Below are positions 4,691-51,594 of a stretch of DNA of 57,206 bases, in pieces. Within the stretch, counting starts at the first letter, position 1, and each line of letters begins with the position of its first letter. Below the pieces are notes generated by a model. It had not been told where the DNA came from, searched no databases, and was given only the letters and a program-made list of their open reading frames with translations. The stretch covers positions 1 to 57,206 of the forward strand of contig MHUV01000002.1 in the NCBI GenBank assembly GCA_001823545.1, in the 5' to 3' direction. The stretch comes from Candidatus Yonathbacteria bacterium RIFCSPLOWO2_01_FULL_43_27 (GTDB lineage: Bacteria; Patescibacteriota; Minisyncoccia; Phycocordibacterales; UBA1550). A program made the position numbers and the translations under genes.

Positions 4691-4926
4691 TCGGTTAATC
4701 TTCAAGGTAAAATGGGGATAGATACCATTATCATAACTTTTCTGGGTTTCAATATTACCTCATCTAATCATTTTTTGACGTCTCGGAGATTTCAGTGTTG
4801 ATTCAAGATGATTCCTTGATACTCATCTTTTCAACCCATGAGTTGCTGTCATGGGGGACATCCTTGTTTATTAAAACAAAGATCGCGTTGAGATCATCAG
4901 GTTTTTCACAATAATAACCCATTTTA

Positions 4927-4980
4927 TATATAACCCTAACGTATAAAATGCTATAGCATTTTATACGTTAGGGTTATATA
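4927..4980. repeat. 54-bp perfect palindrome in the secY-adk spacer
   Basis: TATATAACCCTAACGTATAAAATGC TATA GCATTTTATACGTTAGGGTTATATA was checked base by base and equals its own reverse complement. Confidence 0.9.
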
Positions 4981-5043
4981 GTTGAAGAATATGTGTGCGG
5001 GGACCACTTGCTCTAAAGGTTAAAAGCTAGTAAGCTGAGCATT

Positions 5044-5643
5044 ATGGACTTACAAACAATCATCTTTATTGGACGCTCTGGTGCGGGCAAAGGGGTTCAG
5101 TCGGCGCTCCTTCAAAAATTTCTCAATGAAAAAACTCCCGACGTTCCCATAATCTATTTTGAGACTGGTCAATATTTTAGAAAGTATATGCAGAGTGGTG
5201 GATACACATGGGATCGCGCGCGGGGTACTATTGTGAAAGGAGAGCGTCAACCTGATTTTCTCGCGGTGTGGATATGGGTAAATAATTTTATAGAAAAAGT
5301 TAAAGGGGGAGAACACCTGATTTTTGATGGTACACCTCGTTCGCTCTGGGAGGCAAAAATGCTTCATACGGCACTTCCTTTTTACGAGAGGATGCGTCCT
5401 ATGGTGATTCACCTAGAAATTTCGCGTGAAGAAGCTGAGAAACGTTTGCGAAATCGAGGGAGAGCTGATGATGTTGACGCTGATGCAATAGAGCGACGAT
5501 TTGCGTGGTATGAGCGTGATGTAGTCCCCGCAGTTGATTTTTACCGCGAGGACACAGCGTACCGTTTTCTTGAAATTAATGGTGAACAATCACCCGAAGA
5601 TGTTCATCAGGAAATCGTAGCGCGTTTGATGAGCGAGAAATAG
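5044..5643 (+). CDS. adk: Adenylate kinase (short type, no LID insertion)
   Basis: P-loop GRSGAGKG. ETGQYFRKYMQSG aligns with the STGDMLR NMP-binding motif. DGTPRS corresponds to DGFPRT. The gene sits after secY, as in the canonical operon. Confidence 0.8.
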   Translation: MDLQTIIFIGRSGAGKGVQSALLQKFLNEKTPDVPIIYFETGQYFRKYMQSGGYTWDRARGTIVKGERQPDFLAVWIWVNNFIEKVKGGEHLIFDGTPRSLWEAKMLHTALPFYERMRPMVIHLEISREEAEKRLRNRGRADDVDADAIERRFAWYERDVVPAVDFYREDTAYRFLEINGEQSPEDVHQEIVARLMSEK

Positions 5644-9652: not shown

Positions 9653-9807
9653 CTCCCTGCCTCCCTTAGAGTTTTTATATGATGTGCAATTGTCAAAGAA
9701 CGACAATTTATCCTATATATATTATAGCAAATTTATGTAAAATGTCAATAGTTCAATAAAGGTTAATGGATATTTCTTTCTTTAAGGATTTCATCAGATT
9801 ATTTGTG

Positions 9808-9887
9808 GGCACGGGGAGATTTGAACTCCCAACCCTTGCGGGATGCGCTTCTGAGACGCACGCGTATACCAATTCCGCCACGTGCCC
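9808..9887 (-). tRNA. tRNA-Leu (anticodon CAG), type II with a long variable arm
   Basis: The reverse complement reads GGGCACG-TG-GCGGAATTGGTATACGC-G-TGCGT[CTCAGAA]GCGCA-TCCCGCAAGGGTT-GGGAGTTCAAATCTCCC-CGTGCCC-A. The acceptor pairs fully. The D-arm matches bacterial tRNA-Leu. Confidence 0.8.
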
Positions 9888-10193
9888 ATATTGTATTTGT
9901 ATTGAAGAGGGAAGCGTGTCTATTTTTGTGCCGAGGAGAGGACTCGGTCAAGCGCTCGCTCGTCGTCACCACGTTTTTCGCTCTCTCCCTACAGGAGCAG
10001 TACACCTTTTGGCTCTTTTGTTTCGCCTGCTCACAAAACAGCTTAAAAGGTCTTGCGGAAGCTCCACGTATTCGCTTCCTTACCTGCTTGTGCGACCCAT
10101 CGAGCACGACGGGTACCCGCACTCGCTTTCGAGTCCTCTCCTCCGCCTACAAAATTTAGTTACGAAAAGCTACCACTTTTCGTTTCCAATTTT

Positions 10194-10236
10194 GTGCCGA
10201 GGAGAGGACTCGAACCTCCACAGGTTACCCCTTCCT
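10194..10236 (-). pseudogene. Orphan 3' portion of a Leu-type tRNA (variable arm, T-arm and acceptor 3' strand) with no contiguous 5' half
   Basis: The reverse complement reads ...GGGGTAACCTGTG-GAGGTTCGAGTCCTCT-CCTCGGC-A. It is nearly identical to the 3' part of tRNA-Leu(UAG). No matching GCCGAGG acceptor strand or valid anticodon stem lies in the adjoining 5' sequence. Confidence 0.5.
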
Positions 10237-10343
10237 AATGCCTGTTTCGCGTACGCTCAACAACGGCATTTGCGCATACGCGCACCGGATGAAAATCAAA
10301 GCAGTTTGATTTTCATTCCCGCGTCAGTTCGTCACGCGCAAAG

Positions 10344-10425
10344 TGCTGGGGAGAGGACTCGAACCTCCACAGGTTACCCCGACTGCTCCTAAGGCAGTTG
10401 CGTCTACCAATTTCGCCACCCCAGC
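10344..10425 (-). tRNA. tRNA-Leu (anticodon UAG)
   Basis: The reverse complement reads GCTGGGG-TG-GCGAAATTGGTAGACGC-A-ACTGC[CTTAGGA]GCAGT-CGGGGTAACCTGTG-GGAGGTTCGAGTCCTCT-CCCCAGC-A. Confidence 0.8.
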
Positions 10426-10437
10426 ACTTTAGGCGCG

Positions 10438-10467
10438 ACTTGCGTCTACCAATTTCGCCACCTCGGC
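10438..10467 (-). pseudogene. Orphan 5' portion of a Leu-type tRNA (acceptor 5' strand and D-arm only)
   Basis: The reverse complement reads GCCGAGG-TG-GCGAAATTGGTAGACGCAAG. The D-arm is identical over 21 nt to tRNA-Leu(UAG), then the sequences diverge. Its acceptor GCCGAGG is exactly complementary to the CCTCGGC of the 3' fragment at 10194-10236. Confidence 0.5.
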
Positions 10468-10957
10468 TTCTTCATAACAACTTACACTAAATAACAAGAA
10501 AAAGCGAGTTTTGAGATTGATCTGAATCTCGTTTAGTGACGTTTGTGGTCACAGATAATTTCCTCGCCGTCGCTCGGAAATTTCGCAGTCACAACTTTTT
10601 GCTCGACCGCCGTCTCGCAAAAGTCGCGACCCCTCCTCACTCGTTTTTCTTGCTAGAAAAACGAGTTCCGGCCTTGCGAAGCTCCATGTATTCGCTTCTC
10701 ACCTGGCTCGCTGTTTTGTTTTGCTAAACAAAACATGCTTCGCCTTGCACAAACTAAAAATCTGCCGCAGGCGCTGTTTTTCTTTACGTTTGAATTGCTA
10801 TTTTTGTGGTCACAAGTCACTAAGTCTACTCGTGCGAGTACGCACTGCGTGGACGTAAGTGCTCGCGACCCCGGCTCGTGGTTTTGTGTGCTCACAAAAC
10901 ATCACTGCGCCTTGCACAATGAGAAAATGGTGCGCAGGCACCATTTTCTTTTCATTG

Positions 10958-11030
10958 TGCACCCACCTGGACTCGAACCAGGGACCATCTCCTTAAGAGG
11001 GAGTTGCTCTACCAACTGAGCTATGGATGC
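10958..11030 (-). tRNA. tRNA-Lys (anticodon CUU)
   Basis: The reverse complement reads GCATCCA-TA-GCTCAGTTGGTAGAGC-A-ACTCC[CTCTTAA]GGAGA-TGGTC-CCTGGTTCGAGTCCAGG-TGGGTGC-A. The acceptor has one G-U pair. The anticodon stem has an A-A mismatch at 27-43. Confidence 0.7.
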
Positions 11031-11142: not shown

Positions 11143-11205
11143 TCCGTATTAGCTCCTCGGCTCGGAAGTGAGAAAGATTACTTTCTCACTTCACTCGCTC
11201 TACGT
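11143..11205 (+). repeat. Dispersed roughly 60-nt repeat (family A), copy 1; it contains the hairpin GTGAGAAAG-atta-CTTTCTCAC
   Basis: GTATTAGCTCCTCGGCTCGGAAGTGAGAAAGATTACTTTCTCACTTCACTCGCTCTACGT. A near-identical inverted copy lies at 20281-20340. Confidence 0.8.
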
Positions 11206-11243
11206 CGCTAATAATATTGCTCGTAGTTCCTGATTTGTTTAGT

Positions 11244-11324
11244 GGGTCAGGAGGGAATCGAACCCTCAATCCTTTCGGCGGGAAATTTTAAGTTTCCTGT
11301 GTATACCATTCCACCACTGACCCT
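11244..11324 (-). tRNA. tRNA-Leu (anticodon UAA)
   Basis: The reverse complement reads GGGTCAG-TG-GTGGAATGGTATACAC-A-GGAAA[CTTAAAA]TTTCC-CGCCGAAAGGATT-GAGGGTTCGATTCCCTC-CTGACCC-A. Confidence 0.8.
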
Positions 11325-11326
11325 TT

Positions 11327-11803
11327 TTAGGATTTTTTCTTTCGATTAAGTCCTCGATGCGTTGGTTTTAAACTGTGGCAATTTGGACAAAGAATCCGAA
11401 GATTCTCTATTCTGTTGTCTGTTCTGTCCCCATTTATATGGTCAAGCTCAACTGGGATTCTACCATCAATCGACTTTTTCGCCCAGCCACATTCTTCGCA
11501 TTGTGAATTTTTTAAATTATCTTTGAAGAGTCGTCGTTTCAGCTTGTAGCTTTGGAAACGGCTATCTCTCGTAAGGATCTTATTGAGAGGTATGAGTGGC
11601 TTACCGATTCCCTTTAGTCCTTTACTCCATCCAATGCCAGTAAAGTGTTTAATATCCAGACCGTAATCTTTGACGGCATTGTTAATTTGCGCATAATTTC
11701 CTCCTGCCTCTTTTAGATTGAGTTTTTTGAGAACTTGCCGTACGCTTGTAGAGTTTTTAACAGCGACCCTCAATTGTTCTTCTGTCCAACTTCGTTTCCT
11801 CAT
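11327..11803 (-). CDS. HNH endonuclease (homing-endonuclease-like), free-standing within the tRNA island
   Basis: C-terminal ELDHINGDRTDNRIENLRILCPNCH is the classic HNH core, with an additional CEECGW zinc-finger pair. The N-terminal region (WTEEQLRVAVKNSTSVRQVLKKLNL...GGNY) looks like a small DNA-binding module. The start is placed at MRKRSW. The stop lies 3 nt from the tRNA-Leu(UAA) 3' end. Confidence 0.85.
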   Translation of the reverse strand: MRKRSWTEEQLRVAVKNSTSVRQVLKKLNLKEAGGNYAQINNAVKDYGLDIKHFTGIGWSKGLKGIGKPLIPLNKILTRDSRFQSYKLKRRLFKDNLKNSQCEECGWAKKSIDGRIPVELDHINGDRTDNRIENLRILCPNCHSLKPTHRGLNRKKKS

Positions 11804-11914
11804 GCATAAAAGTATACCATAATGGAAGGCATAGAGGAATACATGTACATAGTTGCCTACCTTTTTAATTAAGAAACTCAATTATATTGCAATTCTTTCT
11901 TGAGGCGTGGGCTC

Positions 11915-11980
11915 CTCTCGGTCACGAGTTACTAAGTGTGCTCGGGCGACTACGCCCTGTGCGCACTAAGTACTCTCGAC
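11915..11980 (+). repeat. Dispersed roughly 65-nt repeat (family R), copy 2
   Basis: GTCACGAGTTACTAAGTGTGCTCGGGCGACTACGCCCTGTGCGCACTAAGTACTCTCGACCCGGGCTCG. Its reverse complement recurs at 20641-20705 with a few substitutions. A diverged copy lies at 10806-10877. Confidence 0.8.
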
Positions 11981-12085
11981 CCGGGCTCGCTGTCGCTTTG
12001 CGACATGCTCCGCCTTTCGATTCTCGACGCAGGCAAAGCAGTTTGCCTGCTCCCACGCCAAGAAAATTCTCTAAGAATTTTCTTG

Positions 12086-12157
12086 AGGCGTGGGCGAGAA
12101 TCGAACTCGCGCATAGGGGATTTGCAGTCCCCCGCCTTACCACTTGGCCACCACGCC
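12086..12157 (-). tRNA. tRNA-Cys (anticodon GCA)
   Basis: The reverse complement reads GGCGTGG-TG-GCCAAGTGGTAAGGC-G-GGGGA[CTGCAAA]TCCCC-TATGC-GCGAGTTCGATTCTCGC-CCACGCC-T. The discriminator U73 is the Cys identity element. Confidence 0.85.
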
Positions 12158-20273: not shown

Positions 20274-20280
20274 ATTAGCG

Positions 20281-20340
20281 ACGTAGGACGAGTGGAGTGA
20301 GAAAGTAATCTTTCTCACTCCTGAGTCGAGGAGCTAATAC
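20281..20340 (-). repeat. Family A repeat, copy 2 (inverted), about 95 nt upstream of tRNA-Tyr
   Basis: The reverse complement of 20281-20340 matches 11143-11205 at roughly 90% identity, including the GTGAGAAAG/CTTTCTCAC hairpin. Confidence 0.8.
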
Positions 20341-20435: not shown

Positions 20436-20519
20436 GCGTAGGTGGTAGAGCGGTCAATTACAACAGACTGTAAATCTGTCGCCCATTGGGCTACGCAGGT
20501 TCAAATCCTGCCCTACGCA
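20436..20519 (+). tRNA. tRNA-Tyr (anticodon GUA), type II
   Basis: GCGTAGG-TG-GTAGAGCGGTCAATTAC-A-ACAGA[CTGTAAA]TCTGT-CGCCCATTGGGCT-ACGCAGGTTCAAATCCTGC-CCTACGC-A. Confidence 0.85.
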
Positions 20520-20567
20520 CAATACAAAAAACGCCCCTCAAGGGGCGTTTTTTGTATTGTGCGTAGG
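20512..20567. terminator. Terminator hairpin embedded in a 56-nt perfect palindrome that includes the tRNA-Tyr 3' acceptor strand
   Basis: CCTACGCACAATACAAAAAACGCCCC-tcaa-GGGGCGTTTTTTGTATTGTGCGTAGG. The core hairpin plus T-run is at 20526-20553. Confidence 0.75.
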
Positions 20568-20640
20568 AGCGACTGAACTGCTTCAGTCGCGTGCAGGATT
20601 TGAAAGGCGGAACATGTTTTTGTAATCAAAAACAGTGAGC

Positions 20641-20705
20641 CGGGGTCGCGAGTACTTAGTGCGCGCAGGGCGTACCCGCCCGAGCACACTTAGTAACTCG
20701 TGACA
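20641..20705 (-). repeat. Family R repeat, copy 3 (inverted relative to copy 2)
   Basis: CCGGGGTCGCGAGTACTTAGTGCGCGCAGGGCGTACCCGCCCGAGCACACTTAGTAACTCGTGAC equals the reverse complement of 11915-11980 with a few substitutions. Confidence 0.8.
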
Positions 20706-20770
20706 AAATCCTACGCACAAAATCTTACCCCACAAAGCGAATGCTTTGCGGGGTAAGATTTTTGTAGCGT

Positions 20771-20801
20771 AACAAAAAACGCCCCTTAAAGGGGCGTTTT
20801 T
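20771..20801. terminator. Bidirectional rho-independent terminator (RNase J and the tRNA-Tyr-side element)
   Basis: AAAAAACGCCCC-ttaaa-GGGGCGTTTTT. It is a near copy of the hairpin at 20526-20553. Confidence 0.75.
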
Positions 20802-20818
20802 ATATACACGAGAATCTT

Positions 20819-25728: not shown

Positions 25729-25773
25729 GGGGTAAAAACAAGGTCCGCGTTATGCGGACCTTGTTTTTACCCC
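25729..25773. terminator. Perfect 20-bp-stem hairpin terminator upstream of gyrA
   Basis: GGGGTAAAAACAAGGTCCGC-gttat-GCGGACCTTGTTTTTACCCC. Confidence 0.75.
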
Positions 25774-34113: not shown

Positions 34114-34127
34114 AGAACGTTAGTGAG

Positions 34128-34179
34128 CTACAAACATAAAAGCGAGAATTCGTTAGAATTCTCGCTTTTATGTTTGTAG
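34128..34179. terminator. Long perfect-palindrome bidirectional terminator between the pilin array and tmk
   Basis: CTACAAACATAAAAGCGAGAATTC-gtta-GAATTCTCGCTTTTATGTTTGTAG (24-bp arms). Confidence 0.8.
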
Positions 34180-34184
34180 CGTCA

Positions 34185-48786: not shown

Positions 48787-51594
48787 TTGCTTGTGAAATA
48801 TGGTATACTTTATACATATATGGCACTATGGGGAGCACAACATCATGAAAGAGGGGAGCAAGGTAACTCTTTAGGGAATACAAAAAAATTTGAAACTCCC
48901 CACGAGGAGATTGCATATTTACGCGCACGTATCGAAGAACAGGAACAGGTGATGACACAAAATGGTCATACTATTGAACGACCGCATGTCGCGAAAGAAA
49001 AGATTTTAGAATATCGCGAGGAGGTTCCTGAAAAAATATTAAAGGAAACATATCAGATTAAGGCACAGGAAATAGAAGAGCGTGTACTTGGATTAGATAA
49101 AGAGCGTTCAGAAATGATTGATGAACTCGTGCGCATTATGATGGAACGTGGTATTAAAAATACACTCACCATACTTGAAAAGTTGCACAACCCTCGCCTC
49201 GAAGACGACTTCCATCGTTTTCTCGTGCAGTTTCTTTCAGACACATCGTTCACTTCAATAGTAAAAGAACGCGTACTCTTTCGTGCGCTTCGTATGCGTT
49301 TGTACGAGATCACCTTACCGCCGATTAATCAAAAAGGTGAAGCAAGAAGTTTTGCAGACCTCGTAACAGGAATGGAACAGTTTTATGCAGGAATGCTTTC
49401 CGTAGAGGCGACATCTTCTGTGTGGGGCGAAGTAAAAAATTACTTTACTCTTGAGCTCGCACTTTCAAATATTTCAAGCGAAGTGGTGTTTTATGCGGCA
49501 GTGCCTTTTGAATACAGCGACTTATTTGAAAAGCAAATACTTTCTGCATATCCAGATGCAAAAATTCGTGAGCATAAAGAAGACTACAATCCATTTAATG
49601 AAGCGGGAGTAACGCTTGCTTCTGTTGCTGAACCAGTAGGAAATCAGGTTTTTGCCATGAAGACGTTTGAAAAGTTTTCCCAGGATCCGTTAAATACACT
49701 TCTTGGTGCCTTTAGTAAGATAGAGCACGCAGGAGAGGGTGTTGCGATACAGTTTGTTATTGAGCCACAAGGAAAGGCGTTTAATGATGTCTATAAAAAT
49801 GCGAGAGAGGAAATTAAAAAAGGTATACCGGTAAAAAAAGCGCTTGAGAGTACCACGATGCGTTTTGCTACGGGTTTTGCCTCGGTAGCCAAAGAACTCA
49901 TGTTTGGTATTAAGAAGAATGAAGAACATATTGACCAAGAAGCGGTTGAGAGTATTACAGAAAAAATCTCTTCACCGGTAGTGGATACCAATATTCGCAT
50001 TGTGGTGTCGGCGGGGGATGAAGCACGCGCGACAGCACTTTTGAATGAACTTGAATCCACGTTTAATCAATTCAATAAACCACACGCTAACGGTATTAAA
50101 TGGCGTCGCCTTACGACGGGTGCAGAACTTGCAAAAACTATTTCTCAGTACTCGTTCCGTATATTTGAGAAGAATCAAAGTTTTCCGTTGAATCTTAAAG
50201 AGCTTACAACGATATTCCATTTCCCCGTAACAGAAGTATCCTCTCCTGAGCTCAAAGAATCCCGCGCGGGAGTTGCGCCAGCACCGCTCACACTTTCTTC
50301 TGAGGGTGTCGTACTTGGTGTAAATCGTTATCATAATAAAGAAACACAGGTGCATATGGGGCGCGAGGATCGCATGCGTCATTTATATGTCATTGGACAG
50401 ACGGGAACTGGGAAGACGAGCATTTTGAAAAATATGATTGTGCAGGATATCCGCAATGGTGACGGCGTCTGTTTCATTGATCCGCATGGTTCTGACATAC
50501 AGGATATTCTTGCCCTTGTGCCACCTGAACGTGCAGATGACGTCATTTATTTTGATCCTGCTGATACAGCGCGTCCTATGGGGCTCAATATGCTTGAGTA
50601 TGATAGAGAGAAGCCCGAACAAAAAACGTTTGTGGTGAACGAGATGATGAATATCTTCAATCAACTCTTTGATATGAAGGTTGGTGGTGGGCCAATGTTT
50701 GATCAGTATTTTAGAAATGCAGCAGCGCTCGTGATGGAGCATCCAGAATCTGGCTCTACGCTTCTCGAGATTACCCGTGTACTTGCGGATAAGGATTTTC
50801 GTGCAATGAAGCTTGCGCACTGTAAAAATCCTATCATCGCACAGTTTTGGACAAGCGCAGAAAAAACTACCGGAGATCAAGGGCTCGCAAATTTTGTGCC
50901 CTACATCTCGAGTAAGTTTGATAACTTTATTTCCAACGATATTATGCGTCCGATTGTGCTCCAGCAGAACTCGACGCTTAATTTTAGAAAGATTATGGAC
51001 GAGAAAAAGATTCTCCTCGTCAATCTTTCAAAAGGACGCTTGGGTGATATCAACGCCAATTTCATCGGGCTTTTGCTCGTAGGGAAAATAATGATGGCAG
51101 CTCTTTCGCGGGTAGATATGTTTGGTACGGGTACCACGCCAAAGGATTTTTATTTGTATATCGACGAATTCCAAAATGTGACGACGCCTTCTATCGCAAC
51201 TATTCTTTCCGAAGCGCGCAAGTATCGTCTCTCGCTCACCGTAGCGCACCAATTTATTGCACAACTTACCGATGAAATAAAAAATGCGGTATTTGGTAAC
51301 GTGGGTTCGATGGCGGTGTTCCGTGTTGGTCCCGATGATGCAAAATATCTCGAGAGTAAGTTTGCACCTACCTTTAGCGCTGAGGATATAACACGCCTCG
51401 ATAACTATCAAGCGTATCTGAGTCTTTTAATTAACGGTCAGCCAGGGAAGTCGTTCAATATTGCTACGTTGTCACCAGAAAAGGGTGACGCGTCTTCCGC
51501 AGAGCACATAAAAGAACTCTCTCGTTCGAAGTATGGACTTTCTCGAGAGATAGTTGAAGCGGAAATTTTTTCGCGTTTTGAGGCAGGGAAGTGA
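48787..51594 (+). CDS. VirD4/TraG-like (type IV coupling protein family) ATPase. It is soluble, with a roughly 500-aa N-terminal extension and no TM anchor.
   Basis: Walker A GQTGTGKT, then FIDPHGSD (compare the v.DPKGE motif). DVIYFDPADTARPMGLNMLE (compare the NPL motif). Walker B LYIDEFQNV. C-terminal EARKYRLSLTVAHQFIAQL resembles the TraG-D_C pattern RKyg..l....Q...QL. The start could be 48820 or 48952 (AGGTG before MTQNGH). Confidence 0.65.
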   Translation: MLVKYGILYTYMALWGAQHHERGEQGNSLGNTKKFETPHEEIAYLRARIEEQEQVMTQNGHTIERPHVAKEKILEYREEVPEKILKETYQIKAQEIEERVLGLDKERSEMIDELVRIMMERGIKNTLTILEKLHNPRLEDDFHRFLVQFLSDTSFTSIVKERVLFRALRMRLYEITLPPINQKGEARSFADLVTGMEQFYAGMLSVEATSSVWGEVKNYFTLELALSNISSEVVFYAAVPFEYSDLFEKQILSAYPDAKIREHKEDYNPFNEAGVTLASVAEPVGNQVFAMKTFEKFSQDPLNTLLGAFSKIEHAGEGVAIQFVIEPQGKAFNDVYKNAREEIKKGIPVKKALESTTMRFATGFASVAKELMFGIKKNEEHIDQEAVESITEKISSPVVDTNIRIVVSAGDEARATALLNELESTFNQFNKPHANGIKWRRLTTGAELAKTISQYSFRIFEKNQSFPLNLKELTTIFHFPVTEVSSPELKESRAGVAPAPLTLSSEGVVLGVNRYHNKETQVHMGREDRMRHLYVIGQTGTGKTSILKNMIVQDIRNGDGVCFIDPHGSDIQDILALVPPERADDVIYFDPADTARPMGLNMLEYDREKPEQKTFVVNEMMNIFNQLFDMKVGGGPMFDQYFRNAAALVMEHPESGSTLLEITRVLADKDFRAMKLAHCKNPIIAQFWTSAEKTTGDQGLANFVPYISSKFDNFISNDIMRPIVLQQNSTLNFRKIMDEKKILLVNLSKGRLGDINANFIGLLLVGKIMMAALSRVDMFGTGTTPKDFYLYIDEFQNVTTPSIATILSEARKYRLSLTVAHQFIAQLTDEIKNAVFGNVGSMAVFRVGPDDAKYLESKFAPTFSAEDITRLDNYQAYLSLLINGQPGKSFNIATLSPEKGDASSAEHIKELSRSKYGLSREIVEAEIFSRFEAGK

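Follow-up and report, generated by a model that had tools for sequence, protein, structure and literature searches.

The question raised by this locus is why the 3' ends of several transfer RNA (tRNA) genes in a 57,206-nucleotide (nt) contig of Candidatus Yonathbacteria bacterium RIFCSPLOWO2_01_FULL_43_27 (MHUV01000002.1, assembly GCA_001823545.1; this whole stretch is referred to below as the window) recur a short distance downstream, bracketing small inserts that share a repeat, here called R. The original prediction had regarded these inserts as attachment-site (att)-like scars of tyrosine integrases, resembling MITEs (miniature inverted-repeat transposable elements) or decayed elements that still carry the repeat. 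Our analysis led us to a different view, in that the best reading of the data is that the R units constitute a large, previously uncatalogued family at the 3' ends of tRNA and transfer-messenger RNA (tmRNA) genes in Paceibacteria-type Patescibacteria.

The repeats that gave rise to the original prediction are real. At a tRNA-Leu, TTTTGTGCCGAGGAGAGGACTCG is found exactly at 9924-9946 and 10190-10212, a match reproduced by 0/100 dinucleotide-preserving shuffles even with 3 mismatches allowed, and the inverted partial copy described between them is present as well (at 10128-10153). Behind tRNA-Cys, TTCTTGAGGCGTGGGC has two copies, at 11897-11912 and 12080-12095, where chance would yield none; the exact repeat extends to 17 nt (11896-11912 / 12079-12095). 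Behind tRNA-Tyr, CCTACGCACAA lies at 20512-20522 and 20710-20720 (expected count 0.02) and additionally, in inverted form, at 20557-20567, and the longer segment AAATCCT..ACGCACAA is copied with a 5-nt deletion at 20706-20720. Repeat R was likewise borne out, 11921-11993 and 20632-20704 being 92% identical over 73 nt. What had been overlooked are the inverted copies behind tRNA-Cys and tRNA-Tyr, two more copies of R after tRNA-Lys (10809-10912 and 10548-10745), the assignment of the copy at 10190-10212 to a disrupted tRNA-Leu and not to the annotated tRNA-Leu(tag), and a diverged long variant of R held by the insert at 9947-10127.

Read along the tRNA strand, one architecture is found at five tRNA loci of this genome, namely Cys, Tyr, Lys (two copies) and an outer Leu in the window, and Gly(ccc) in L009, a chimeric metagenome contig that revealed this unit of the same organism (retrieved loci are cited by such numbers). 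Each unit begins with X1 (the tRNA 3' end plus a few trailer bases) and a trailer hairpin; next come X', which repeats this tRNA end in inverted orientation, the R module ending in GTGAC, and X2, which repeats the tRNA end directly. A covariance model of R, built from 60 copies, found the module in the window only at Tyr, Cys and Lys, plus the longer second Lys copy. The six tRNA genes of the window, all recognized by ARAGORN and Rfam, and the parts of the units are listed here with the basis of each assignment in parentheses; the helices of R are described further below.

9805-9887, minus strand: tRNA-Leu(cag).
10343-10425, minus strand: tRNA-Leu(tag), intact, nested in the disrupted outer tRNA-Leu.
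10957-11030, minus strand: tRNA-Lys(ctt).
11242-11323, minus strand: tRNA-Leu(taa).
12085-12157, minus strand: tRNA-Cys(gca), with T54 at 12105, C56 at 12103 and the discriminator at 12086 (also sequence).
20436-20520, plus strand: tRNA-Tyr(gta), with C56 at 20502 and A73 at 20519.
12079-12103, minus strand: Cys X1, the tRNA 3' segment that starts at C56, with the trailer CAAGAAA; it is the template of the repeats (sequence).
12060-12085, minus strand: Cys trailer hairpin h, CAAGAAAATTCT-TAGA-GAATTTTCTTG (sequence, folding).
12016-12059, minus strand: Cys X', the inverted tRNA 3' end, split in two by the hairpin hpC (sequence, folding).
12052-12059, minus strand: X'a of the Cys unit, GGCGTGGG.
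12027-12051, minus strand: hpC of the Cys unit, AGCAGGCAAACTGCTTTGCCTGCGT.
12016-12026, minus strand: X'b of the Cys unit, CGAGAATCGAA.
11921-12015, minus strand: Cys R module, consisting of AGGCGGAG, hp2, CGAGCC and P3 ending GTGAC (covariance model, 100.8 bits).
11896-11920, minus strand: Cys X2, the direct copy CGAGAGGAG-GCCCACGCCTCAAGAAA, exact in the acceptor part and trailer and altered in the T-stem part (sequence).
20520-20559, plus strand: Tyr terminator-like hairpin (sequence).
20560-20604, plus strand: Tyr X', made up of X'a TGCGTAGG, hpC AGCGACTGAACTGCTTCAGTCGCGT and X'b GCAGGATTTGAA (sequence).
20605-20704, plus strand: Tyr R module (covariance model, 105.5 bits).
20705-20722, plus strand: Tyr X2, AAAATCCT-ACGCACAAAA, a direct copy with a 5-nt deletion (sequence).
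20772-20805, plus strand: second copy of the Tyr terminator, 82% identical, downstream of X2 (sequence).
10809-10912, minus strand: Lys R copy 1, with an acceptor-end junction (..TTGTGCA/AGGCG ... GTGAC/CACAA; covariance model, 96.9 bits).
10548-10745, minus strand: Lys R copy 2, long and with additional hairpins, followed by CACAA (covariance model, 27.1 bits).
10430-10475, minus strand: 5' part of the disrupted outer tRNA-Leu, GCCGAGGTGGCGAAATTGGTAGACGCA... (sequence; the gene is intact in the relative L032).
10190-10212, minus strand: X1 of the disrupted outer tRNA-Leu, from C56 to the 3' end plus CAAAA (sequence).
10128-10154, minus strand: Leu X', TTTTGTAGGCGGAGGAGAGGACTCGAA (sequence).
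9947-10127, minus strand: diverged long R variant of the Leu unit, with GAAGCGAATACRTGGAGCTTC in common with Lys copy 2 and ending in GCTTGAC (sequence; not detected by the covariance model).
9924-9946, minus strand: Leu X2, an exact 23-nt direct copy (shuffle test).

At both Cys and Tyr, hpC is a 25-nt hairpin with the loop AACTGCTT that splits X' between its acceptor part and its T-stem part, and X' is often divided in this way in full units generally. The Tyr hairpin, a terminator of canonical type, and its flanks form a perfect palindrome with 27-nt arms (20512-20567), with X' extending the terminator into the tRNA 3' end; indeed, in most units the tRNA is followed by a terminator composed of an A-tract, a GC-hairpin and a T-tract, the palindrome of which is prolonged by X' into the tRNA 3' end. 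A bidirectional terminator ends many of the tRNA genes, its arms beginning at the first trailer base. The tRNA genes of the window, L024, L030 and L080 do not encode CCA, and CAA is found directly 3' of 4/6 of those in the window, as is also common in the relatives.

The outer tRNA-Leu(tag)-type gene (10196-10475, minus strand; acceptor stem GCCGAGG/CCTCGGC) is split after position 26 and is intact in the relatives L032 and L102. Compared with this outer gene, the nested tRNA-Leu(tag) has identical D and T arms and a different but compensated acceptor stem, which is lengthened by a 14-bp flank helix (10331-10351 / 10419-10439; GTCGCGCCTAAAGT / ACTTTGCGCGTGAC) resembling the base of P3 in R; a 110-nt spacer with a CTGC-loop hairpin comes after the nested gene. 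As for the chimeric contig L009 (2690-2920), the join lies at GAGTTCGATTCTCG, a sequence common to tRNA-Cys and X' of the tRNA-Gly(ccc) unit, and repeats of this kind can mis-join short-read assemblies.

R itself spans about 105 nt and comprises a 3-bp helix (P1), a variable hairpin (hp2) and an irregular hairpin of about 30 bp (P3) ending in GTGAC, of which the base is conserved, the middle covaries and the tip is free. Its sense consensus reads AGNCGSAG - hp2 - CGAG-N'-C - GGGGTCGMGAGYACTTAGT-S-C-N-C-R-CAG - variable tip - CGAG-N'-A-S'-ACTTAGT-R-ACT-Y-GTGAC. With 60 sequences, RNAalifold recovered 21 P3 pairs, 7 of them with double compensatory changes at positions that the search pattern had left free (e.g. 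CG:32/GC:27 in one pair and GC:30/UA:18/AU:10 in another). P1 (GNC/GN'C) covaries as well, as GGC/GCC, GCC/GGC, GAC/GTC, ACC/GGT and GTC/GAC, and is fully paired in 38/63 motif-anchored cases vs. a mean of 15 with shuffled partners; in hp2, hpC and the P3 tip, the sequence is free to vary and the hairpin is kept. Whole units fold with z-scores of -6.7 to -13. In the predicted fold, X'a/X2 would form an outer stem identical to the tRNA acceptor stem and X'b/X2 an inner stem, with R as the cap and hpC branching off at the acceptor/T boundary (the 7/8-65/66 junction). It is also evident that one strand carries the consensus structure: in 86/92 units, which share ancestry and are thus not independent counts, the R core is more stable in sense than in complement, by 5.9 kcal/mol, and its sense strand contains twice as many G-U pairs. 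Such a preference of R speaks for a form that is single-stranded and strand-specific, not for a symmetric cruciform, the terminator-plus-X' part on its own folding nearly symmetrically on both strands. As a conserved, covarying and strand-specific structure, R is not decayed filler.

No Rfam 15 family was found on R in the window and 17 loci at either gathering or E-value thresholds, the only matches being to tRNA, tmRNA, LOOT and group I intron, all of them off R. We accordingly rejected group I or II introns, ribozymes and split-tRNA introns, for which no model matched and which would have to be accommodated in a bacterial organism (RbfA, IF-2, SecY); an intron is further disfavored by the fact that the first X copy already completes the tRNA, with X2 often being defective. 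Recent bursts within genomes were likewise rejected, given that P3 is barely more alike within genomes (identity 0.878) than between them (0.854).

To survey R beyond the window, one genome per species was scanned with a pattern for the 3' arm of R (CGAGNANACTTAGTRACTYGTGAC), yielding 70 loci with 74 matches, all in records of Patescibacteria (labelled Yonath-, Nomura-, Paceibacterota, Minisyncoccia and, for some, Saccharibacteria). A co-oriented tRNA, of many isotypes, lies within 460 nt upstream for 49 of these matches; 8 of the tRNA-less loci have a tmRNA gene upstream of R in the same orientation, and most other matches follow cargo genes or an intron-bearing (group I) tRNA, or are situated where a locus ends. 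When metagenomes were scanned with the R 5' arm, at least 118 stretches were returned, with the same linkage to tRNA. When the scans were pooled, 109/144 distinct R ends had a co-oriented tRNA or tmRNA no more than 330 nt upstream, compared with a background of 3.1% (P ~1e-132). This link of R with the 3' ends of tRNA and tmRNA genes, so far above background, extends over more than 40 named genomes and many metagenomes, in keeping with the original prediction, and the flanking duplication is found again at dozens of other tRNA loci. In all, at least 18 tRNA isotypes plus tmRNA carry R, each with a repeat matching its own tRNA, the orientation of R is always that of the tRNA, and every R located in the genome and metagenome scans adjoined a tRNA, a tmRNA or cargo. 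R was not found with two arm patterns in 2.9 million viral contigs (IMG/VR; plasmid collections were not searched), and a phage attP origin was dismissed on this basis; nor is the element described in the literature searched. At L074, a group I intron (4871-5081; Rfam, 66 bits) is located just upstream of two tandem R units, and the intron-bearing gene is probably a tRNA missed by ARAGORN.

Where X2 starts was determined by junction analysis on 99 non-redundant units, which placed this start at C56 (class T) or at C72/A73 of the acceptor end (class D). In class T (56/99 units), GTGAC is followed directly by CGA or CAA, i.e. T-loop C56-R57-A58, and X2 then continues through the 3' strands of the T-stem and acceptor stem, the discriminator and 1-9 trailer bases, the junction between R and X2 being precise (offset 0 at C56). 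In class D (34/99), GTGAC is followed by CACA(A), corresponding to the last acceptor base, discriminator and trailer, and all such units lie behind tRNA-Arg, -Lys, -Ala or -Glu. The length of the repeat is 20-29 nt in class T, with a variable distal end 1-9 nt past the tRNA, and ~5 nt in class D. Class T X2 segments match their own tRNA at a median of 14/18 positions and at 15/18 or more in 27/56 units, as compared with a median of 9/18 for foreign tRNAs, 0.2% of which reach 15/18. An exact inverted match of at least 10 nt identifies X' in 38/56 class T units vs. 2.4% of controls, and X' extends as far as the complement of T54 (...TCGAA), passing the start of X2 by two bases. X' is lacking in L028, and the 3' arm of R alone is kept in L055 and L063. 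We also considered a retroelement primed by mature tRNA, with a primer-binding site of the long terminal repeat type, and rejected it since X' complements the genomic trailer instead of CCA and runs past A58 to T54.

Some junctions depart from these classes. In the window Cys unit (11912-11920), L064, L070, L072 and L093, X2 starts with CGAGAG(GAG) and becomes an exact copy from the acceptor strand onwards; this may represent a further, third kind of junction, located like hpC at the 65/66 boundary. At four tmRNA loci (L018, L027, L035 and L043), R is followed by a conserved CGATGAACC.. that does not copy the 3' end of the tmRNA beside it; this end can be seen in L018 and L027, in both of which X' matches it, and L018 harbors three such units in tandem.

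Comparison of related genomes revealed that occupancy is patchy. The Cys-Leu(taa)-Lys(ctt)-Leu(tag)-Leu(cag) cluster is syntenic in the window, L030, L080, L024 and L032, and among these five genomes the presence of R varies tRNA by tRNA, as can the junction class at one tRNA. R follows tRNA-Cys in the window, L030 and L080, and tRNA-Leu(taa) only in L030 and L080; at tRNA-Lys it is present in the window (two copies) and L024, with a degenerate T-loop-class unit in L080; at tRNA-Leu(tag) it is found in the window and L032, with a plain spacer/terminator in L024 and L080 and only a partial tRNA copy in L030. Tandem units occur at the window Lys and in L048, L070, L033 and L018. Most R copies are gene-free and occupy 100-250 nt; accessory genes, when present, lie between X1 and X'-R-X2, as in the following loci.

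L054: an OLD-family ATPase-nuclease and an XRE regulator.
L058: an HTH-ImmA/IrrE protein and a DUF4411 PIN-like protein (toxin-like pair).
L084: a GNAT protein.
L012: ASCH-domain and pyrophosphatase-like proteins.
L039 and L090: proteins without known identity.

L020 comprises a two-cassette array, in the order tRNA-Ser, an open reading frame (ORF), X'-R-X, an ORF (ART-PolyVal), a terminator and X'-hpC-R*-X. An SF1 helicase is a putative cargo gene in L181, where it lies between tRNA-Glu and a copy of R. Partial copies without R exist as well: 5' copies (~17 nt) of tRNA-Leu are located just upstream of real genes (L024 1700-1790, L030 4380-4500 and L032, minus strand, ~1080-1180), some with a CTGC-loop hairpin inserted in the D-arm part, and L030 has a 3' pseudo-half of tRNA-Leu, without R, after tRNA-Leu(tag).

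That the junctions are precise, that at least 18 tRNAs plus tmRNA are matched, that occupancy is patchy, that units form tandem arrays and that cargo holds a fixed position together indicate that R units belong to a site-specific insertion or cassette system and are not filler or scars. The covarying structure of one strand, the start of units just past terminators with no visible promoter and the tRNAs' own promoter boxes (a TGnTATAAT-like box lies ~12-14 nt upstream of tRNA-Lys in the window, L024, L030 and L080) favor single-stranded DNA over an RNA gene, and the position beyond canonical terminators together with these boxes argues against routine co-transcription; no promoter was recognisable at the units, for which regions the promoter/terminator scanner was uninformative. 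We tentatively favor, at somewhat less than even confidence, the notion that R units are non-autonomous, structure-dependent, tRNA-anchored insertion or cassette elements, moved as single-stranded DNA by a recombinase encoded elsewhere. The steps that follow are what we infer beyond the existence of the structure at these junctions. In the folded sense strand, X' would pair with X2 into a stem that mimics the duplex 3' end of the target tRNA gene, with R as its cap; an unlinked recombinase would recognize this hairpin and exchange strands with the tRNA gene at the T-loop (55/56) or the acceptor end; replication would then fix the insert, and the integrated form would read tRNA-X1-(cargo/terminator)-X'-R-X2, leaving the tRNA intact. 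The simplest account of how X' comes to match a new tRNA may be hairpin-templated (snap-back/template-switch) copying across R.

Several observations weigh against this scheme. Its weakest point is that the scheme by itself does not explain how X and X' match at least 18 tRNAs, requiring the extra template-switch step, and a staggered-cut target duplication would equally supply this matching. In several units (the window Cys and L127), X' pairs better with X1 than with X2, and at the four tmRNA loci X2 is no copy of the tmRNA end. The position of hpC is defined by the tRNA and recurs in unrelated loci, as if a tRNA-like shape were under selection and hpC no by-product, and the ~85% identity of P3 between genomes would fit a constrained host function equally well as an active element. 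No recombinase, reverse transcriptase or transposase was found among 30 window ORFs or 10 cargo proteins scanned; the catalyst is therefore hypothetical. Finally, no excised form, circular junction or within-population empty/filled polymorphism was found, and the predicted empty Tyr site was not in the metagenomes searched. A candidate population polymorphism was discarded because all strain contigs with identical IF-2 share an identical tRNA region, the deviant L009 being a chimeric assembly.

A more far-reaching version, which we consider rather doubtful, is that R units represent a new cassette or insertion system with a programmable attachment site, either a folded single-stranded att that re-templates its stem on every new target or a guide-RNA-like scaffold for an undiscovered recombinase or nuclease of the candidate phyla radiation (CPR). 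With respect to the guide-like view, R is followed by an 18-25-nt segment that matches the tRNA, and the matching site in the tRNA gene lies next to GGTT.

Two rivals were weighed against this scheme. One is that the units specify a host-beneficial, tRNA-like structured RNA, with X'a/X2 as acceptor stem, hpC in place of the D and anticodon arms, X'b/X2 as T stem and R in place of the T-loop; made by read-through or from its own start and trimmed by RNase P, RNase Z and the CCA-adding enzyme, it would act as a processing signal, decoy or primer. We consider this unlikely, even though the predicted fold has the topology of tRNA with hpC exactly at the 7/8-65/66 junction, and the covariation and strong sense-strand preference, the constant orientation of R relative to the tRNA, the ~85% conservation of P3 across genera and, in acceptor-end units, the succession of P3 and (C)ACAA, equivalent to the discriminator-plus-trailer of real tRNAs, would all suit an RNA. 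However, the units start just past intrinsic terminators with no recognisable promoter while the tRNAs have their own TGnTATAAT boxes, up to 3 kb of cargo separates the tRNA from X'-R-X2, orthologous tRNAs are occupied patchily with truncated or degenerate copies among them, X2 is often too degenerate for pairing (window Cys and Tyr), and there is no reason for such an RNA to need the acceptor sequence of whichever tRNA lies upstream. The other rival, which we rate as nearly as unlikely as the first or slightly more so, is a true target-site duplication, in which one strand would be nicked at 55/56 or at the acceptor end and the other a few bases past the tRNA, with subsequent fill-in duplicating the segment from C56 to the 3' end so that the tRNA survives; insertion would proceed by target-primed reverse transcription of R RNA, as with short interspersed nuclear elements (SINEs), or by a Cas1/casposase-like integrase, and snap-back at the R hairpin or the palindromic terminator would make X'. 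Reverse transcriptases, one of which would serve here, are common in these bacteria. This explains the local matching at 18 or more targets without extra assumptions, as well as the precise R/C56 junction with a variable distal end (repeats of 20-29 nt, reaching 1-9 nt past the tRNA), the extension of X' to T54, two bases past the proposed nick, as limited strand displacement would give, and the copies with only the R 3' arm and junction (L055, L063, L031, L035); casposons, which are reported to duplicate tRNA 3' ends (PMC6614799), provide a precedent. Yet neither a reverse transcriptase nor an endonuclease is linked to R, which also lacks a poly-A or other 3' tail and casposon- or Tn-type terminal inverted repeats; cargo genes that bring their own promoters suit a DNA cassette better than a retrocopy, the repeats of the acceptor-end class are only ~5 nt, and 3'-truncated copies exist (L128/L130/L161, L133) with no clear 5'-truncation bias. 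Indeed, 5' truncation as a signature of reverse transcription was rejected after the 5'-arm search, in which nearly all copies were two-armed and a few were 3'-truncated.

The view of the original prediction, that these are attL/attR scars of double-stranded elements or prophages inserted by tyrosine integrases and decayed to remnants that keep R, seems very unlikely to us. Direct repeats of a tRNA 3' segment from the T-loop or 3' end are its textbook footprint, tmRNA is a classic target, and tandem arrays and cargo islands are typical at tRNAs; in this sense short R inserts bracketed by duplicated tRNA 3' ends from the T-loop or acceptor end do stand as att-like, but not as ordinary decayed integrase elements. 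The reading accounts for the direct repeats but little else: no integrase was found in the window ORFs scanned or the cargo-bearing copies examined, the viral contigs contain no R, a covarying strand-specific R abuts C56 exactly with an inverted target copy on its other side, and independent decay would not repeatedly leave one 105-nt sequence. Moreover, near-identical R is found at many tRNAs of one genome with each repeat perfectly matched, and one R at 18 or more isotypes plus tmRNA, each with its own matching repeat, is not possible for a single attP. Least probable of all, in our opinion, is that there is no element, R being a stable hairpin spread locally by template-switching errors at highly transcribed, structure-prone tRNA genes. 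The R-less partial tRNA copies (5' tRNA-Leu copies, the L030 3' pseudo-half and the split window tRNA-Leu) and the perfect long palindromes centered on terminators would be its natural products, but template switching cannot give 105 nt at ~85% conservation across genera and dozens of unlinked loci, nor the covariation of R, the precise junctions or the cargo cassettes bounded by R.

With regard to its surroundings, the window is cellular genome and not phage, with Pfam matches to IF-2, ClpB, RNase J, GyrA, RecA, FtsK, aminoacyl-tRNA synthetases and ribosomal proteins. Exact protein matches also put it on contig MHUQ01000003.1 of GCA_001825065.1 and on identical contigs from groundwater metagenomes. 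An HNH endonuclease gene that stands alone (11327-11803, minus strand) occupies the gap between the Cys X2 and tRNA-Leu(taa), with 3 nt between its stop codon and the tRNA; it is missing at the corresponding place in the relatives L030 and L080, and the sole other homologue among 190 loci lies just upstream of tRNA-Thr (L088). We rejected this gene as the mobilising enzyme because its homologues are unlinked to R in the 190 loci and the gene is missing there in relatives. A 935-amino-acid protein (48787-51594, plus strand) weakly matches coupling proteins of type IV secretion (TraG/VirD4, TrwB) and may belong to a system for conjugation or DNA uptake; an AT-rich stretch (48-49 kb, GC 0.33) adjoins its gene. 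Perfect intergenic palindromes with 20-27-nt arms are located at 4927-4980, 25729-25773 and 34127-34180, the second of which gave a weak match to the R covariance model, presumably only as a hairpin. A second repeat family, designated S (67 nt, 91% identity), is present at 11146-11212 (minus strand), after tRNA-Leu(taa), and 20274-20340 (plus strand), before tRNA-Tyr, both copies being oriented alike with respect to the tRNA strand; S is similar to R's 5' module (AGAGCGAG-hairpin-CGAGCC) but has no P3.

Patescibacteria have tiny genomes, the gene gain and loss of which are poorly understood. The R family marks a widespread, recombinase-less route by which small cassettes, some of the defence or toxin type, seem to be parked behind tRNA and tmRNA genes, which they leave undamaged. 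R and the precise junction at T-loop position 56 also provide a searchable marker for the missing enzyme, for variable islets in metagenome-assembled genomes and for correcting tRNA-fragment annotation. Should the hairpin-att or guide-like reading be true, it would amount to a new site-specific DNA insertion chemistry with its specificity written in the target copy.

The R element misses at least one defining feature of each known family that could be tested. Like the tRNA- and tmRNA-gene islands of tyrosine integrases, which reportedly use T-loop and 3'-end sublocations of the tRNA gene (as Williams is said to have described in 2002), it shows a direct repeat of the tRNA 3' segment, an intact tRNA, tandem arrays and cargo; unlike them, no integrase was found with R, one module serves at least 18 isotypes, the target copy is also present inverted, and the single-strand structure covaries. 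A closer parallel may be found in CTXphi at dif, where a folded single-stranded att hairpin of two inverted dif-like sites leaves a target copy, cargo, an inverted copy, a loop and a target copy. R units share with such integrative mobile elements exploiting Xer (IMEX) the integrated layout, the stem mimicking a duplex target and the absence of any need for an element-encoded recombinase, and the X'-R-X2 inverted-copy pair with cargo on the X1 side is seen at nearly every full unit. However, R targets a tRNA or tmRNA 3' end instead of dif, nothing like an Xer-type core was recognised, a conserved 105-nt structured module makes up the loop, and no phage genome or genes for single-stranded replication were seen at R units. 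As with attC of integrons, R is an imperfect, strand-specific hairpin, conserved in its lower stem, interrupted by irregularities and variable at the tip, and as with integron cassettes it may carry small accessory ORFs (GNAT, toxin-antitoxin-like) or be empty, the sequence right of the junction being derived from the target; in contrast to these, R has no RYYYAAC/GTTRRRY core but ends in AGNCG... and ...CTYGTGAC, lacks an adjacent intI, attI or Pc, uses any tRNA or tmRNA gene as platform, and has an outer stem made of an 18-25-nt copy of the target.

Repetitive extragenic palindromes (REP), their paired form (REPIN) and MITEs are, like R, short, non-coding, multi-copy, hairpin-forming intergenic repeats presumably moved in trans. 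Unlike REP/REPIN, R is strictly specific to tRNA 3' ends in a fixed orientation and has no GTAG/CGTC tag, and no gene like the REP-associated tyrosine transposase (RAYT) is flanked by R copies among the loci retrieved. The likeness to MITEs is accordingly partial, holding for small size, lack of coding capacity and copy number but not for element-borne terminal inverted repeats or a fixed-length target duplication, since the inverted arms X'/X2 copy the local tRNA and differ at every locus. Casposons and retroelements without long terminal repeats resemble R in their long variable target duplication with one precise and one variable junction, and casposons duplicate tRNA 3' ends, but R lacks terminal inverted repeats, Cas1/casposase, reverse transcriptase and a 3' tail, and cargo promoters lie inside its units. 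The GGTT/C56 junction and the strand-specific hairpin would fit IS200/IS605 and the related palindrome-associated transposable elements (PATE); unlike those, R has its target duplicated and the tRNA left intact, with no tnpA or tnpB seen among the R loci examined. Lastly, the delocalized homing CRISPR RNA (crRNA) of CRISPR-associated transposons consists of a scaffold and a tRNA-gene segment, located at the distal end of an element that sits just downstream of that tRNA (PMC11656645). R resembles this homing crRNA in that a scaffold is followed by an 18-25-nt copy of a tRNA gene with the matching site preceded by GGTT; it differs in lacking Tn7-like ends, tns and cas genes and similarity to CRISPR repeats, in the acceptor-end match of only ~5 nt, and in that the would-be guide is paired with X'.

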